Below are positions 54,498 to 64,000 of a DNA stretch of 64,000 nt, piece by piece (positions within the stretch are counted from its first letter, which is position 1; every line of letters starts with the position of its first letter). The translations under genes were made by a program, and so were the position numbers. The notes beneath the pieces were generated by a model. It did no database searches. It was given only the letters and a program-made list of their open reading frames with translations, and had not been told where the DNA came from. Location of the stretch: the NCBI GenBank assembly GCA_964291315.2, contig OZ219753.1, positions 1,056,001 to 1,120,000 on the forward strand, read 5' to 3'. The DNA is from Candidatus Poribacteria bacterium. GTDB taxonomy: Bacteria > Poribacteria > WGA-4E > WGA-3G.

Positions 54498-55352
54498 CTA
54501 ACCCTTAGCAGGTGGAAACGGCCTTAGTGGTTGATTCGTTCGATTCCCACGTGAAACGGCTTCCGGCGGAAATTGTGTACACACTTTACCGTTCTTCATT
54601 CCCCATTTGCTGTTGGGGAAAAAACGTTCACTCTTTTTGTTAATCTCTGGATTTGTTAAAACACCAGCAACGGCAATACGACTTTTCTCACTCGGATTCG
54701 GTGGACTGTAATGCCACATATTACTATGCCAAAAAACTGCATCTCCCGTGTCTAACTCAATATGGTGTACGCCGCACTTTTCGATCATCCCCCGAACGAC
54801 TTTACGTGGGATTTCCCCATGGATGCTATCGGCATATAAGACGTGTTCAATAACCTCAGTTTTATGGCTCTTAGGTATGAACTGCATGCATCCATTTTCT
54901 TGAACTGCGGGCTCAAGCGCTATCCAGAAATTGAAAGATTCAGTATCCCCATCGCGCCAGAGGCCATTGTCTTGGTGCCATGGGGTCGCAGCACCGGTGC
55001 GCGCCGGTTTAAGAAAACAACTGTTGAACTTTACAATGATGTCATCGCCGAGGAAGTAGCGCGCAATGTTGAGCAGGGCAGGCCCGGCATGAACGTTGTG
55101 CCATATCAGCGGAGATTCAACGCAGAAGTTGGCGAGTTTTCGAAAGCGGGCAATGCGGCCTTGTGGCGAGCCGTCCATCGGATCCATGGGGTCATAGTCA
55201 GCAAACTCACCGGCGTTCGGGAGCATCAGAACATTACGAATGACCCCACGGAGCTGTGCTGCCAAGTCTTCTGAGATAACATTGCGAAGAATAAAATAGC
55301 CCTCAATTTCGTATTGTGATTTTTGGACAGCGGTTGGCTGCCATTGTGTCAT
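54498..55352 (-). CDS. PhyH-family dioxygenase
   Basis: PWHQD, ENGCM, HYSPPN.S..SR; start 55352 after AGGAGG. Confidence 0.88.
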   Translation of the reverse strand: MTQWQPTAVQKSQYEIEGYFILRNVISEDLAAQLRGVIRNVLMLPNAGEFADYDPMDPMDGSPQGRIARFRKLANFCVESPLIWHNVHAGPALLNIARYFLGDDIIVKFNSCFLKPARTGAATPWHQDNGLWRDGDTESFNFWIALEPAVQENGCMQFIPKSHKTEVIEHVLYADSIHGEIPRKVVRGMIEKCGVHHIELDTGDAVFWHSNMWHYSPPNPSEKSRIAVAGVLTNPEINKKSERFFPNSKWGMKNGKVCTQFPPEAVSRGNRTNQPLRPFPPAKG

Positions 55353-55678
55353 CGTTGTAATCCTCCTTTTTTGTAGATCGGAAGGACACTCCGCGGGCCA
55401 GAGCACGACAAAAGTCTACAACGTATACAACGCTCCTTAAACGAAGATGTCTTGAACGTGACACAGGACTCCTTCAATAACATCCCCTGCACCAAAAGGT
55501 ATCGCTCTGCCGTTAGATGAAACCCACACTTGAGCAATAGGCCTCTACATTACATATCCTAATTTTTGTACAAGTTTAGCATAAAAAAGAAAATATCTCA
55601 AGGGTTTGGACAGCTTGAGGAAATCTTTTCCGTTGAATTATTTAGCGCGATATGATAGATTAAAGAAAATATTGCTAT

Positions 55679-56810: not shown

Positions 56811-56839
56811 TTGCTAAAAAAACAAATATCTGTTAAAAT
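56811..56839 (+). promoter_or_regulatory. sigma70-type promoter of the HMA selenoprotein pair
   Basis: TTGCTA-17 nt-TAAAAT with TGn, followed by TAAGGAGG RBS. Confidence 0.6.
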
Positions 56840-56875
56840 AATAGAGACATATAATTATTCTAAGGAGGTTAACCC

Positions 56876-57271
56876 ATGCGTATCGCGAAATTATCGCTGA
56901 TTGCCCTAGTCGCCTTTGCTTTTATAGTAGGGTGCGGCATGATCGGGAAGAAAGCAGAAATGCCAGAGACTACCCCTACTTCCATCGAAACTGCCACAAC
57001 GCAATCTGAAGCCAAGGCTGACGACATGTCAGCATCCATGGAGGGAGCCGCCGTTGAAGAGGTAACACTGAACGTCACAGGTATGACATGAGGATCCTGT
57101 ACCGGTAAAGTGCAGGATGCACTTAGCAAGGTCACAGGCGTTTCGGAAGTGGTAAGTGTTTCTTCGGATACGAATACGGCTGTCGTAAGAATCAAAAAGG
57201 GTAAAGTGACGACTGCAGCGCTTACCGAGGCAGTTAAAGGTGCTGGTTTTAGTGCCAAGGTTGCCCAATAG
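56876..57271 (+). CDS. selenocysteine-containing HMA (CopZ/MerP-like) lipoprotein 1, 131 aa
   Basis: Lipobox IVGC; VTLNVTGMT-U(TGA 57089)-GSCTGKVQDALSKVTGV...AVKGAGFSA; stop TAG at 57271. Confidence 0.88.
57108..57124 (+). promoter_or_regulatory. SECIS-like element
   Basis: AAGTGCA-GGA-TGCACTT; loop 23 nt after UGA. Confidence 0.75.
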
Positions 57272-57385
57272 GACATAATTTTGAAGGGGTGAGGTTTGCT
57301 CGCCCCTTCAATTGAGCAGATTGTAATGCAGAACATTAAAAGCTGCGTCTCGAAAACCGCTGCTATAAATGAGAGGTACAAACCT

Positions 57386-57730
57386 ATGTATCAATTAAAT
57401 GTAAGAATACTATTTGTCTGTCTCGCGGCACTTTTGCTCGTCGTTGCATGTGCGGACACAGAAAAGAAAACAACAGAAGCTCCAAGTCAGACAACGGAAG
57501 CAAACATTGAAGAGGTGACACTCGCTGTAACCGGCATGACTTGAGGTAGTTGTACTAGTAAGGTGCAGGATGCACTTACAAAGGTCGCCGGTGTTTCTGA
57601 AGTTGTCAGCGTTTCTATGCAAGAAAACAAGGCTGTCGTGAAAATTGAAAAGGGTAAAGTTGATAACAACGCACTTGTGAAGGCTATTGAAGGAGCAGGG
57701 GCAGGCTTTAGAGCCCAAGTTACCCACTAA
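57386..57730 (+). CDS. selenocysteine-containing HMA lipoprotein 2, 114 aa
   Basis: GAGAGG RBS; lipobox VVAC; VTLAVTGMT-U(TGA 57542)-GSCTSKVQDALTKVAGV...; stop TAA at 57730. Confidence 0.88.
57558..57579 (+). promoter_or_regulatory. SECIS-like element
   Basis: GTAA-g-GTGCA-GGA-TGCAC-TTAC; loop 23 nt after UGA. Confidence 0.75.
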
Positions 57731-57775
57731 GCACGAATCAGTAGAGCGATATCGGTTTGCGCTTCGTTCTATGAG

Positions 57776-57808
57776 AAAAAAGCGAGGTCCCAGGATCTCG
57801 CTTTTTTT
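57776..57808. terminator. bidirectional intrinsic terminator
   Basis: AAAAAAGCGAG...CTCGCTTTTTTT between convergent genes. Confidence 0.85.
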
Positions 57809-57837: not shown

Positions 57838-58698
57838 TTACTGCTGCTTCGTGTAGAGCGGCGTTTCAAGCAAAGATTGCACTTCATAAATGGAACCCTT
57901 CCGCTCAGCGTGGGGTTCCGGCATACGGACAGGTGCAGCTACGATGCGAGGCTCATTCGTCGGCTCACCACGGATAATAAAGCTATTAAAAGTGTGCCAA
58001 TCCGGGATACCCTTCAGGGGCCACGCGTCTACGGCACAATATTGGAACAGGAGCAAGCGGCGCGGCTTCTCAGATGTATTCGGGGCAGAACCGTGTAACG
58101 TTCGCACATGATGAATAGTGATACCCCCTGCTTTTAACTCGATAGGTACAGCACCCGCTGGCGTGAAATTGGGATCCGTTACCGCCCCAACAAACACCCC
58201 ATTTTGATGGTGATCCAAAGTCGGGCCCTTGTGTGAACCCGGAAGTATCATCAAGGCACCGTTCTCCACGCTCATATCATCAATAACAACCCCTACTGCC
58301 AGCAAACTATCGTTGGTATGTGGATAGAACGCCCAATCCTGATGCCATTCAACCGGGCTCCCGAACTCCGGATATTTCATATTCAGTTTATGCCCATTAT
58401 ATCGAACCCCCGGGCCAATGAGTTGTTCCACGATATCTAGAATCCTCGGATGCCGTAAAGCCCGATCATAAACAGTGTGGTGGATCCCCGGATTTTTGAT
58501 GCGCCGTACACGCGGGGTAGCAGAAGTATGCCCTGGTTCTAGGTCAAAAATATCAGTGTGTTTGGTAACTTCCCTCGATTTTTCAACGAATTCATCGGTG
58601 ATGCGCTGAAGATCAACGACCTCCTCTGACGTTAATACGGCTTCAACGCCGATATAGCCACTCCTGTTATAAAAATCAAGTTGTTCTCGTGTCAGCAC
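57838..58698 (-). CDS. PhyH-family dioxygenase
   Basis: EWHQD, ENGAL, PGSH, HGSAPNTS..PRR. Confidence 0.9.
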   Translation of the reverse strand: MLTREQLDFYNRSGYIGVEAVLTSEEVVDLQRITDEFVEKSREVTKHTDIFDLEPGHTSATPRVRRIKNPGIHHTVYDRALRHPRILDIVEQLIGPGVRYNGHKLNMKYPEFGSPVEWHQDWAFYPHTNDSLLAVGVVIDDMSVENGALMILPGSHKGPTLDHHQNGVFVGAVTDPNFTPAGAVPIELKAGGITIHHVRTLHGSAPNTSEKPRRLLLFQYCAVDAWPLKGIPDWHTFNSFIIRGEPTNEPRIVAAPVRMPEPHAERKGSIYEVQSLLETPLYTKQQ

Positions 58699-58753: not shown

Positions 58754-59062
58754 TTATCTACCCGGCCGCTGGCGTAAGGTTTCCCTAAATACCTCAAGGC
58801 TTGGGGTTTTGGGAATTGCGCGTAACAACGCTTTTAGATGATCTAAGTCCTCAATTTTTTCAAGGTCATCCTTTAACGTTTGCACAGACTCGGGCTGGAA
58901 CTGGTCACTCAGTAATTCAAGGATCAACTCAATAGCGCACTTCCTCTGCCCGCGTTCTAACCCGCGTTCTAACCCGCGTTCTAACCCGCGTTCTAACCCA
59001 CGTGCCATAGCGCGTTCTTCTGCTTCTCGAACGTATTCGCGGAAAAAAGGAGATTCTTGCAT
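58754..59062 (-). CDS. putative internally initiated small Rpn product (antitoxin-like, 102 aa)
   Basis: In-frame ATG (MQESPFF) preceded by GGAGG at 5-nt spacing. Confidence 0.55.
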   Translation of the reverse strand: MQESPFFREYVREAEERAMARGLERGLERGLERGLERGQRKCAIELILELLSDQFQPESVQTLKDDLEKIEDLDHLKALLRAIPKTPSLEVFRETLRQRPGR

Positions 59063-59698
59063 AATACCCTCCGGCAAAAATTGTTTTATCACTTGAGGAT
59101 CATGGACTAAACCACCAAAGACCCCCAAAGCAGCAAGCAGGAGATCTCGGTCGTTCTGATCCACGTTTGAGGTGAAGGTAGCATCAATACATGTTTCTAA
59201 CCAGCGCGTCGGCTCCATGTGTTCAGGCGGTCTCATTAACGGAGAGAGCGGCAGTAACCCGGGAACCGCAGCCTCCAAGATTGATTGCCCCTCTATGTCG
59301 ATGAGCCGAATTACCCTATACTTAAGCTTGTATTCACATCCATAGCCGACATACTCATAGTATCCAGGGTCATTTCTGCCCGCATGCGGGTGAAGGTAGA
59401 GAACACTCGAATAAGTTTTCAATCTATGTTCTCTGATAAGGAATCCGTTATAACCTGCAATCCGAAGCGGCATTGGTTCACGACTATCATATGCCTGAAA
59501 CTCGTTATGAAGGATAGCAACTTCATCACCGAAACGGACCTTCAGAGTGCTATCTGTTTCACGCGTCTTAAGCACGATTTGTTCAGTCGCTAAATTCTCC
59601 AATACTGTGACTTTTGGATATTTGAGGATGAGTTCTACAAAAGGTTCGGTATATTCGTTCGTTACAAATTTCGCTACATTATCATAACGATGTTTCAT
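58754..59698 (-). CDS. Rpn/YhgA-like (PD-(D/E)XK) recombination-promoting nuclease family protein
   Basis: RETDS...ILHNEFQ...MPLRIAGY; C-terminal (RGLE)n repeats and helical tail. Confidence 0.8.
   Translation of the reverse strand: MKHRYDNVAKFVTNEYTEPFVELILKYPKVTVLENLATEQIVLKTRETDSTLKVRFGDEVAILHNEFQAYDSREPMPLRIAGYNGFLIREHRLKTYSSVLYLHPHAGRNDPGYYEYVGYGCEYKLKYRVIRLIDIEGQSILEAAVPGLLPLSPLMRPPEHMEPTRWLETCIDATFTSNVDQNDRDLLLAALGVFGGLVHDPQVIKQFLPEGIMQESPFFREYVREAEERAMARGLERGLERGLERGLERGQRKCAIELILELLSDQFQPESVQTLKDDLEKIEDLDHLKALLRAIPKTPSLEVFRETLRQRPGR
58949..58996. repeat. 4 x 12-bp tandem repeat CCCGCGTTCTAA (encodes LERG)
   Basis: Four exact copies. Confidence 0.95.
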
Positions 59699-59704
59699 AT
59701 AGAT

Positions 59705-59734
59705 AGTATACCCTAATATGTTAATCTCTGTCAA
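59705..59734 (-). promoter_or_regulatory. promoter giving a probably leaderless rpn mRNA
   Basis: TTGACA-18 nt-TATACT; ATG begins 7 nt downstream with no SD. Confidence 0.55.
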
Positions 59735-59793
59735 CATCTTTTATTATAAAAATTTGGTTTCTCAGAAAGTTCTACTCCGCACAATCGCGCACA

Positions 59794-62000: not shown

Positions 62001-64000
62001 TTATTTTTTAACAAGCTGCGACCCTTCTAAAGGTCCGGGTGTCCCCGAGTCTAAAGACAATGCCGGCAAACGCTTAACAATCGCTACCGTCCGAAGACTG
62101 ACAGTGATAACGCGCGCCACTAAATCCACAATATACCGCGGCGCATCCGCACAATTCGGATCGGTAACCAGCCCGCTCCGACTGTGCGTCTTCACACGAT
62201 ACTGATCTATCACCCACTCCAACGCTGAACGAGTGCCTGACCGATACGCAAACGCCTCGGCTGGAATGCCCTCCAACGTCAAGAACTCGTTATATTTCAA
62301 CTGTGTCTTGTCTTTGGACAACCGCATCTTTTCGACGCGCCAGTTGAGCGGCACCTTGGGGTTCTGCATCAACCTGAGTTTTTCGTATTTCGGTTGAGAT
62401 TCGTAGTTAACGTGGAGGTCTGCGAGTTGTGCGCCTGCGGTAGCGAACGCCCAGAAGTCTGTGGTGAAGAGGATATGCGGCAGATCGCGTTTGAGGTTCG
62501 CCTCGTATCTCTGGCGGTAATCCGGATGATGTAGGAGCCCATAGGTGTAGTGGAAGATGTCCCACTTGCTGATGGTATCGTCCCTGTAGTGAGAGCGGAA
62601 CGTGGATAACGTCCAGTCGGTGATATTTTCGCGGCGGTTGCTCCCGTCTTCGTCATAGGTGTAGAAAGGAAAGCATTGGGTTGGTGATCCAAACCCGCCC
62701 GTTACTACAAGGTTAGGAGTACAAGCAGCCATCAAACAAGTAAAGGGTTTTTCTAGCGTCACGTTGACACAGATTACCCGATTTTCTGATTCAGTTTCTG
62801 GTGTAGGAAAGATAGATGGAAACATAGCAAGCCTGTCGTCCATTGTTTGATCAAAGTAGAGATTTAAAGTCGTAAACGGACGATAAAGTGATGTTCGTAT
62901 TTTCGCCTCTGTAAATACTGTGGTCTGACCCCTCTGTAGTTTCCGCTTTAACGTCGAACTCCACTTGATCTTCGTGGCATCGGAAATCAGAAAATTATCA
63001 ACGTTCGCCTCCCTATTTGTTCCTTGTGTCCAACGCGCCCCCTCTGCGTTGTAATTTTCTATCATCCTGCTTATATTTTCAGTGAGTGCGTCTCGGTTGA
63101 AATTGTAGACCCACGCATCACGATTTGTACTGATACCGAGACTGTAAGTTTTGAAAAGAACACCCTCTGTCTCTCCCGCAGAGGCTTTTGCTGCCTTAGT
63201 CCCCATCGGCGTGAAGGTGTCAAACTCAGGGTCCAGACTTTCTGTCAGCCATGCGTGCCGCGCATCGGGTTCAATGGACCGCCACGCAACACCGCCCACA
63301 TGCTGACATTTATTCAAGAACTCGAACTTCTGCTCTCTATTCCACAACTCATCCGTGCGATAGTAAAAGATACGCGGCTTCTCTGATGACTTGTCTCTAT
63401 TTTTCACGAATAGATTGATACTCACCCCTATCCGAATGTTGAATACATTCGCATGAGAGACCTTTAACCCGCGCTGCACATTCCCGCCTAAGTCGAGAAC
63501 GTAGAGGGCATCGAAGTCTGCCGCAAGGTGTTTTCGCACCCCATCAAACGCGATGCCGTCCAGAAAACTGTTATTCGTTACCAGAGCCACAACGCCCTCC
63601 TCTCCAATACGATCGGATGCCCATCGGATCGCCTTCACATACGGATCGTAGAGGTTATTTGGGGTCTGTGCTGCAGAGTCTTTGACATACGTCTCCGCAA
63701 CTCGTGCGTCCATGAGCGGGTGTTTCCTATTCTTGTTGTTGTCGTTCTCACTCCGCTGCCCGGCGTTATAAGGCGGGTTGCCGATCACTACGAACATGTC
63801 CGCCGACTTCTGCTCCTGCACCCGCTCTGTGTTTTCGCGCGTGAAGAGCTGTCCCTGCTCCTGCTCAAGCAGCTCGAACGTATCCGCCAGCACGATACCC
63901 TCAAACGGCAGATACGCACCCGTCCGACGGAAATACTCCTGCTCAATGTTCAAACTCGCAATGTAATACGGCAAAAGCATCACCTCGTTGCAGTGGAGTT
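62001..64000 (-). CDS. Type ISP (LlaBIII/LlaGI-like) restriction-modification enzyme, MTase + specificity C-terminal part (runs off right edge)
   Basis: NEVMLLPYYIA.LNIE, GNPPY, RDAWVYNF, YRPF, DIFHYTYGLLH...YR.RY..NLKR.LP, SALEWVIDQY. Confidence 0.85.
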   Translation of the reverse strand, partial: LHCNEVMLLPYYIASLNIEQEYFRRTGAYLPFEGIVLADTFELLEQEQGQLFTRENTERVQEQKSADMFVVIGNPPYNAGQRSENDNNKNRKHPLMDARVAETYVKDSAAQTPNNLYDPYVKAIRWASDRIGEEGVVALVTNNSFLDGIAFDGVRKHLAADFDALYVLDLGGNVQRGLKVSHANVFNIRIGVSINLFVKNRDKSSEKPRIFYYRTDELWNREQKFEFLNKCQHVGGVAWRSIEPDARHAWLTESLDPEFDTFTPMGTKAAKASAGETEGVLFKTYSLGISTNRDAWVYNFNRDALTENISRMIENYNAEGARWTQGTNREANVDNFLISDATKIKWSSTLKRKLQRGQTTVFTEAKIRTSLYRPFTTLNLYFDQTMDDRLAMFPSIFPTPETESENRVICVNVTLEKPFTCLMAACTPNLVVTGGFGSPTQCFPFYTYDEDGSNRRENITDWTLSTFRSHYRDDTISKWDIFHYTYGLLHHPDYRQRYEANLKRDLPHILFTTDFWAFATAGAQLADLHVNYESQPKYEKLRLMQNPKVPLNWRVEKMRLSKDKTQLKYNEFLTLEGIPAEAFAYRSGTRSALEWVIDQYRVKTHSRSGLVTDPNCADAPRYIVDLVARVITVSLRTVAIVKRLPALSLDSGTPGPLEGSQLVKK

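Follow-up and report, generated by a model that had tools for sequence, protein, structure and literature searches.

Can two neighbouring bacterial genes, each interrupted by an in-frame TGA where a metal-binding motif should have its first cysteine, be read through as selenoproteins, and what would such proteins do? The question is raised by a tandem gene pair, here called A and B, at positions 56876 to 57730 of a 64,000-nucleotide stretch of a Candidatus Poribacteria genome (assembly GCA_964291315.2, contig OZ219753.1, positions 1,056,001 to 1,120,000 of the forward strand); this whole stretch is referred to below as the window. Named homologues likewise place it in Candidatus Poribacteria, a phylum associated with sponges. 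A model that had seen only the letters of the window (the original prediction) proposed that both genes encode lipoproteins with an HMA metal-binding domain in which selenocysteine (Sec) replaces a cysteine ligand. The sequence evidence presented here suggests that A and B are very probably real Sec lipoproteins, and the fuller explanation, that they are Sec-containing, lipid-anchored periplasmic HMA proteins that bind a soft metal, is a probable one.

Two tandem genes with an in-frame TGA in the HMA motif

The features of the pair that bear on its decoding and on the predicted proteins are:

56876..57271, + strand: gene A, 131 aa, from ATG 56876 to TAG 57271; predicted lipoprotein with an HMA domain and Sec72 (GMT-U-GSC)
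57386..57730, + strand: gene B, 114 aa, ending at TAA 57730; predicted lipoprotein with an HMA domain and Sec53 (GMT-U-GSC)
57089..57091, + strand: putative UGA (Sec) codon of gene A, codon 72, in frame
57542..57544, + strand: putative UGA (Sec) codon of gene B, codon 53, in frame
57109..57123, + strand: SECIS-like hairpin of A, AGUGCA-GGA-UGCACU, starting 20 nt after the first UGA base
57562..57576, + strand: SECIS-like hairpin of B, GGUGCA-GGA-UGCACU
56876..56935, + strand: predicted signal peptide and lipobox of A (AFIVG-C20), a pattern match
56936..57052, + strand: predicted flexible linker of A, with AlphaFold2 (AF2) pLDDT below 50 at residues 21-50 and 52-54; Met-rich in orthologues

The original prediction placed the TGA exactly at the first Cys of the HMA motif in both genes, and this was confirmed down to the coordinates: both read-through frames contain ...VTGMT-U-GSC-T.... 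Read in this way, A and B share 57% identity over 94 residues, and the Pfam HMA model (PF00403) matches A with 43.8 and B with 42.7 bits against a gathering threshold of 24.8, the domain spanning the TGA in each. For gene B, ATG 57386 (MYQLNV...) is most likely the start, in preference to the TTG at 57296 given by the lister of open reading frames (ORFs), because its orthologues begin there (MRQLNV or MLHLNV).

Relatives keep the TGA and the frame behind it

Of 41 related genomes, 40 contain a match to the pair, and each orthologue listed for either gene has exactly one TGA. We extended the comparison to a phylum sample of 151 Candidatus Poribacteria genomes at a match threshold of E <= 1e-12, and 138 of these had a match. 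By family, the matches covered 99 of 99 genomes in f1, 10 of 10 in f2, 26 of 26 in f3, 2 of 4 in f4 and 0 of 11 in five other families; the pair is thus present in 135/135 sampled genomes of three Poribacteria families (plus 2/4 of a fourth) and is, as judged from these sequence matches, a core gene of a Poribacteria order. Of the matches in this sample, 150 were listed and 121 further ones were not; a single in-frame TGA is present in 144 of those listed and none in six, far more than chance would produce. The TGA-free matches whose sequence was read (genome G002, locus L040, and P0003-P0025) are C-terminal, Cys-type repeats of proteins with several HMA domains, while the remaining TGA-free matches among those listed have coordinates that agree with this. 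Such proteins, with two to four tandem HMA repeats, occur in some Poribacteria (loci L040, L100 and L101, and P0003-P0025); their leading repeats have TGA and the last has Cys (GMMCDACP), and gene callers start them at an internal MQDALSK.

Cys occupies the Sec position in the distant exported homologues P0048 and P0050 (GMTCGSC) and, encoded by TGC, in one Poribacteria lineage (locus L057). The check proposed with the original prediction, namely whether relatives keep the TGA and more distant homologues have Cys in its place, therefore supports it. A related strain (run X3, 95-99% alike) has contigs that depart from the window at 18 listed positions. Two of the changes, at 57088 and 57541, are in the third bases of the Thr codons that precede each TGA; both TGAs are intact, and neither site reads TGC or TGT, the outcome that had been named as contrary to the prediction. 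Two other runs, X1 and X2, show no difference from the window, may be its source, and were not counted as independent support.

We next estimated the ratio of nonsynonymous to synonymous substitution rates (dN/dS) by NG86 over the 45 post-TGA codons, using 132 comparisons per gene and dropping those with saturated or undefined dS (20 for A and 6 for B). Medians of 0.154 in the 112 remaining pairs of A and 0.20 in the 126 of B show purifying selection on the post-TGA frame, the absence of which had been named as contrary to the original prediction. Post-UGA peptides encoded in this frame include VQDALSK and VTGVSEVVSVSSDTNTAVVR.

A frozen hairpin follows each UGA

Bacterial selenocysteine insertion sequence (SECIS) elements, as described for bSECISearch, consist of a stem-loop shortly after the UGA with a G in the apical loop. 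Folds of the 62 nt after each UGA differ globally between A and B and share a local hairpin only. To define this hairpin across the family, 53 distinct 57-nt sequences were aligned without gaps from the UGA onward. RNAalifold and pair counts agreed on a shared local hairpin in which columns 21-26 pair with columns 30-35, (A/G)GUGCA-GNN-UGCACU. Its 6-bp stem is 99.1% paired and the loop base G27 is invariant. Four of the six stem pairs are invariant and one alternates between A-U and G-U. At the closing pair, 47 sequences have A-U, 2 have G-C, 1 has G-U and 3 are unpaired. The two-sided change from A-U to G-C, found in loci L047 and L050, came at the cost of a Gln to Arg and an Asp to Ala substitution. 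In its position and its loop G the hairpin agrees with this description, and it is taken here as a SECIS-like element. When folded singly, A had also suggested a lower helix between columns 11-15 and columns 42-47; its pairing over all sequences is 77%, and it is left unclaimed.

The codons that form the hairpin are frozen. Across 128 distinct Sec-type sequences, Val+7 is GTG in 128/128, Gln+8 is CAG in 125/125, Asp+9 is GAT in 78/78 and Ala+10 is GCA in 128/128. In the comparison columns, the other five Val, the three Gly and three of the four tabulated Thr columns use all four codons; at the remaining one, Thr -1, four codons occur, but 120/127 sequences use two of them. In the small sample of Cys-type domains, Val+7 is GTA in 4 of 6, which breaks the stem.

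A compact and sequence-frozen SECIS can also serve as a search key. A degenerate form of the hairpin motif occurs 10 times in the pair's own genome, and three of these occurrences lie exactly 21 nt after an in-frame TGA, all in HMA domains. The search exposed a third hidden member of the family in this genome, which is described below.

Decoding of the UGA

The original prediction called for a search for the sel genes, and all of those sought are present. In the pair's own genome (4 contigs, 95.2% complete), profile searches placed selA (588.9 bits), selB (328.8 bits), selD (357.3 bits) and a tRNA-Sec gene (78.1 bits) each above the curated cut-off; selB adjoins the tRNA-Sec gene, and selD itself contains one in-frame TGA. 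SelB and tRNA-Sec would thus read the UGAs of A and B as Sec, directed by the compact hairpin inside the coding sequence. ARAGORN returned nothing for the window itself.

SelD appears to be a selenoprotein in this organism (...VKCAG-U-ASK..., contig C4:721940-722863, locus L011). Its gene has a hairpin 15 nt after the UGA with a 5-bp GCUCC/GGAGC stem and an AGG loop.

In public protein records the family appears as pieces, a few of them translating the TGA as W. The N-terminal pieces (72-83 aa) stop at ...GMT, and the C-terminal ones begin at a GTG codon (MQDALSK...). The few names given are 'cation transporter' or 'hypothetical protein' in Candidatus Poribacteria records and 'uncharacterized protein YceK' or 'copper chaperone CopZ' in those of JGI. 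Since the records are fragments or misreadings, the pair is invisible to counts of selenoproteomes and to surveys of metal homeostasis in sponge symbionts.

These gene calls look just as they would if the TGAs were true stops that leave short lipopeptides and GTG-started C-terminal pieces, or decayed pseudogenes. Termination at the TGA would, however, cut the HMA fold between strand 1 and helix 1. It is also at odds with the retention of the TGA together with its downstream frame in 144/150 of the matches listed, with the post-TGA dN/dS of 0.15-0.20, with the frozen hairpin codons and with the Sec machinery in the genome, and we regard it as extremely improbable. The records that print W at the TGA (GMTWGAC; P0008, P0023 and P0024) would fit an alternative code in which the organism reads TGA as Trp, Gly or Cys. 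Against this, 1871 ORFs of at least 300 aa in the same genome end in TGA in 400 cases, in TAA in 880 and in TAG in 591; the use of TGA as terminator in 400 of them excludes a global reassignment, and the in-frame TGAs that were found sit at Cys/Sec positions of HMA domains and SelD. A recoded TGA is accordingly given almost no credence, and decoding as Sec is the explanation that we carry forward.

Predicted structure of the proteins

Both proteins begin with a positively charged N-terminus and a hydrophobic stretch, followed by lipobox-like motifs, (F)IVG-C20 in A and VVA-C22 in B. The lipobox that had been predicted for each protein was thus recovered, and a script assigned the pattern to 137 of the 157 Sec-type sites that the Poribacteria loci contain. 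It left 20 unassigned, which probably stem from internal repeats or truncated loci. In one alignment (A2), Cys20 has a conservation of at least 90%.

In an AF2 model of A, built from a 32-row alignment, residues 60-130 have a pLDDT of about 95. They form a strand (60-68), a helix (73-84), two strands (89-96 and 101-107), a second helix (113-122) and a final strand (126-129). In the model, U72 is part of the loop that follows strand 1, and C75 belongs to the first turn of helix 1. The order of elements is the beta-alpha-beta-beta-alpha-beta of the HMA fold, and the metal motif is placed where strand 1 gives way to helix 1. Confidence drops below a pLDDT of 50 at residues 21-50 and 52-54, the mark of a flexible tether. 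The best solved match in Foldseek was MerP of Cupriavidus (Ralstonia) metallidurans (1osd), with a TM score of 0.93, a root-mean-square deviation of 1.1 Å and 44% identity; next came HMA domains of copper ATPases, CopZ and MerP 1afi, and the top matches were all HMA proteins. U and C are invariant in the orthologues (UxxC in 128 sequences), and the residues between them vary freely (GA, GS, GG, SN, GN, DN, DV, SA, SL, GV and others).

The linkers between lipobox and HMA domain had been described as rich in Ser, Thr and Glu. Linkers are indeed present, but their composition in the orthologues is not simply this: those of A are Met/Ala/Glu-rich and those of B are Ala/Thr/Glu/Gln/Pro-rich. Met makes up 12.7% of 51 A-type linkers and 0.9% of 60 B-type linkers, compared with 1.86% in long ORFs genome-wide.

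Relation to known metal-binding proteins

Sec-containing HMA proteins had been thought to be predicted merely sporadically. This proved too narrow, as curated NCBIfam models (NF041115 and NF045683) and listings in reviews exist. The pair falls below the cut-offs of both models and of the MerP model TIGR02052, and it is best described as an unannotated, lipid-anchored UxxC variant of an already catalogued Sec-HMA domain. It thereby widens the range of Sec-HMA proteins from cytoplasmic or pump-attached forms to lipid-anchored proteins of the periplasm.

NF041115 (UxxU_metal_bind) is the second-best NCBIfam match for both proteins and the best among selenoprotein models, at 49.2 and 56.8 bits against a cut-off of 95. 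It shares with the pair an HMA-type domain that stands alone and has Sec in its metal motif, but it has two Sec (UxxU), whereas the pair has one (UxxC in all 128 sequences), a lipoprotein signal and a linker. NF045683, a MerT/CopZ fusion-like heavy metal transport selenoprotein, shares an HMA-like part (about 44 bits against a cut-off of 375), while the pair lacks the MerT membrane part. MerP (TIGR02052; 1osd and 1afi) is likewise a single exported HMA domain with a GMT-C-xx-C-type site. The pair differs from it in its predicted Sec as first ligand, its lipid anchor, its long linker and the lack of a mer operon, and in being core to an order where MerP belongs to accessory resistance genes. 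The CopZ/Atx1 chaperones have the same fold and site geometry, but they are cytoplasmic and use Cys only, and the genome encodes a separate Cys-type CopZ-like protein of 68 aa.

The Sec of the P-type ATPase selenoprotein sits in its HMA domain, and its motif is of the same UxxC type as that of the pair. That protein is a large, cytoplasm-facing pump, in contrast to A and B, which are 131 and 114 aa long and have no ATPase domain behind their single HMA domain, and the P-type ATPase of the pair's own genome has Cys. A cation-transporting P-type ATPase selenoprotein with UxxC is listed in PMC2398784, PMC9312934 and PMC13188914.

Two apparent precedents were set aside. The 'UGSC-containing selenoprotein' model NF041046 gave no match at E <= 0.01, and the orthologues of the pair read UGAC, UGGC, USNC and UDNC, among others; at the level of sequence the shared letters are coincidental. 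The 'MerP selenoprotein' of the GOS data (PMC2398784, supplement file 3) is a 33-residue read fragment with a different motif. In the full texts within reach, which leave out most subscription-journal papers, we found no description of UxxC HMA lipoproteins from Poribacteria, and a keyword search of the accessible part of a 2026 selenoprotein review gave no PF00403, lipoprotein, sponge or Poribacteria entry.

Probable role of the pair

If A and B are made as predicted, they would be exported and lipidated, each made up of a lipoprotein signal peptide, a flexible linker some 20-40 residues long and a single MerP-like HMA domain that faces the periplasm. The selenolate/thiolate pair (U-x-x-C) would bind a soft metal at the end of a flexible tether, and the two proteins would act as a tethered metal buffer or relay and not as an enzyme. 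This agrees with the original prediction of a membrane-anchored, extracytoplasmic selenolate metal binder, which fits the lipoboxes, the MerP-like fold and the absence of an adjacent ATPase or mer gene and which is still an inference. We consider metal binding the likely function of the pair. A CxxC motif tends to form a disulfide in the oxidising periplasm, and a selenolate is fully ionised at neutral pH and its Se-S bond is more easily reduced than an S-S bond. Sec might therefore allow the U-x-x-C site to stay metal-competent in an oxidising compartment.

As to the metal, Cu(I) is our tentative first choice, because of the Met-rich tether of A and the CopZ/ATPase export route in the genome. 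Met-rich segments are typical of the periplasmic Cu(I) handlers CusF, CopC/PcoC and CueO. Hg(II) is a possible ligand and the main alternative, since MerP is the closest relative and the affinity of selenolates for mercury is very high.

Several points weigh against this explanation. Sec incorporation and translation past the UGA are inferred from sequence, as are export, the identity of the metal and the reason for Sec, and the link from Met-rich segments to copper is drawn from general knowledge. The hairpin stem is nearly invariant and classical covariation is thin (one pair, in 2/53 sequences), so that the case for a SECIS rests on synonymous-site invariance; the lower helix, at the pairing given above, shows weak covariation, and Rfam at gathering thresholds found nothing in the whole window, the hairpin belonging to no curated RNA family. 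The lipoprotein call is a pattern match and not the output of a trained predictor such as LipoP or SignalP. There was no conserved metal-related neighbour in 48 related loci or in the loci of more distant families. MerT was not found in the 95.2%-complete genome, in which the best match to the MerA model reached 396 bits against a cut-off of 454.

Two other functions have to be weighed against metal buffering or relay. The proteins could be the equivalents of MerP, that is, periplasmic Hg(II) scavengers that feed a mercury uptake or reduction system. The best single-domain relatives by both structure and sequence are the MerP proteins 1osd and 1afi (44% identity), the curated HMA selenoproteins carry mercury-related names ('putative mercuric reductase' for NF041115 and the MerT/CopZ fusion for NF045683), and general chemistry gives selenolates their very high affinity for mercury. 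However, the MerP model scores A and B at only 49.4 and 44.8 bits against a cut-off of 92.55, MerT was not found and the MerA match is below its cut-off in this 95.2%-complete genome, and a core gene of a whole order is unlike the accessory mer operons; we therefore think this role unlikely. The U-x-x-C could alternatively be a redox centre, making the proteins periplasmic selenol/thiol oxidoreductases or peroxide scavengers. No gene for a metal-handling partner lies nearby, the title of entry 1osd shows that MerP can be crystallised in an oxidised disulfide form, and, in PMC2398784, PMC9312934 and PMC13188914, most of the bacterial UxxC selenoproteins listed are redox proteins of thioredoxin-like fold. 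The fold here is HMA and not thioredoxin-like, all close solved relatives bind metal, the full GMT-x-x-x-C motif typical of metal sites is retained and the linkers of A are Met-rich, all of which makes a redox function quite improbable. Binding of a soft metal by tethered HMA domains is the role that we prefer.

Other HMA domains of the genome

The genome of the pair encodes five HMA domains, two with Cys and three with TGA. The Cys-type domains are the 68-aa CopZ-like protein, which has no signal peptide, and the N-terminus of an E1-E2 P-type ATPase. The TGA-type domains are those of A and B and the C-terminus of a third protein, encoded on contig C3, and all three are in proteins with export signals.

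The third protein, about 540 aa long and encoded outside the window (C3:361661-363289; locus L147:1662-3290), would be a further hidden HMA selenoprotein. Its hydrophobic N-terminus is followed by a CxxCH motif of the haem-c type, a WD40 beta-propeller and, at the C-terminus, an HMA domain with VTGMT-U-QAC, an architecture established in this genome alone. Its gene has a similar hairpin, GUGCG-GGU-UGCAC, 21 nt after the TGA. In relatives, one TGA is present in 27 of 29 matches among the matches listed in open frames of 515-587 aa.

In this genome, then, the exported HMA domains (A, B and the C3 protein) are of the Sec type and the cytoplasmic ones (the CopZ-like protein and the P-type ATPase) are of the Cys type. 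It is rather doubtful that this pattern extends to a rule for Poribacteria whereby exported HMA domains use Sec and cytoplasmic ones Cys. If such a rule does hold, Sec would be what maintains a two-chalcogen Cu(I)/Hg(II) site in a reduced, metal-binding state in the oxidising periplasm, and A, with its Met-rich tether, and B, with its Pro/Thr tether, would form a core periplasmic relay supplied with metal by the ATPase. Copper homeostasis in this aerobic symbiont of animals would then have a branch that depends on selenium. The genome nonetheless offers a natural comparison of Sec in exported and Cys in cytoplasmic HMA domains, which bears on why selenium replaces sulfur.

Transcription signals and neighbouring genes

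Four further elements accompany the pair:

56811..56839, + strand: promoter-like site, TTGCTA, a 17-nt spacer and TAAAAT, with TG preceding the -10 hexamer
56862..56868, + strand: Shine-Dalgarno sequence of gene A, AAGGAGG
57281..57311, + strand: intergenic A/B hairpin without a U run, a 13-bp perfect stem (-26.2 kcal/mol, z -4.9)
57775..57808, + strand: terminator-like hairpin and U run at the 3' end of the pair (-20.6 kcal/mol, z -5.7)

The pair had been credited with its own promoter and terminator. The promoter part is supported in part: the 9/12 match at 56811-56839 is weak when taken alone, as the pattern scan found 5 sites against a chance expectation of 2.0, but the -35 and -10 hexamers are largely conserved in an alignment of 15 upstream regions, the window included. 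In the same alignment, six of the seven bases of the Shine-Dalgarno sequence are invariant and the seventh (G119) is at least 90% conserved. For the terminator, a simple pattern scan of the region listed none, but folding did reveal the hairpin at 57775-57808 followed by a U run, in line with the prediction. None of 200 shuffled sequences folded as well as the intergenic hairpin at 57281-57311, which could possibly be a partial terminator, protect the transcript or set the ratio of A to B.

No P-type ATPase, mer gene or metal-related domain turned up in the 14 ORFs scanned around the pair, from 45.7 to 64 kb, as the original prediction had stated for the adjacent genes. The domains recognised in them include OEP, BNR, GFO/IDH, GDSL lipase, sulfatase, two PhyH, GIY-YIG, glycosyltransferase, PRPP synthetase and Type ISP. 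Across the 48 related loci of the family the flanks are syntenic (44 have GIY-YIG, 43 have PhyH), and the conserved neighbours, which also include the sulfatase, the glycosyltransferase and PRPP synthetase, have no connection with metals; in loci from more distant families the neighbours differ. The two PhyH dioxygenase paralogues (54498-55406 and 57838-58698, - strand) flank the GIY-YIG gene and the pair, with the sulfatase adjoining, and this arrangement is kept in most related loci.

Two neighbouring genes are of more restricted occurrence. A 327-aa ORF at 58754-59737 (- strand), between PhyH and the glycosyltransferase, has no Pfam match and includes (RGLE)n units repeated in tandem (ARGLERGLERGLERGLERGQ); only 3 of the 48 related loci have this ORF, which is probably an insertion. 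At 62001-63983 (- strand) lies a gene for a Type ISP restriction-modification enzyme (Type_ISP_C, 334.8 bits), found in 0 of the 48 related loci, which is likely to be a strain-specific defence gene.

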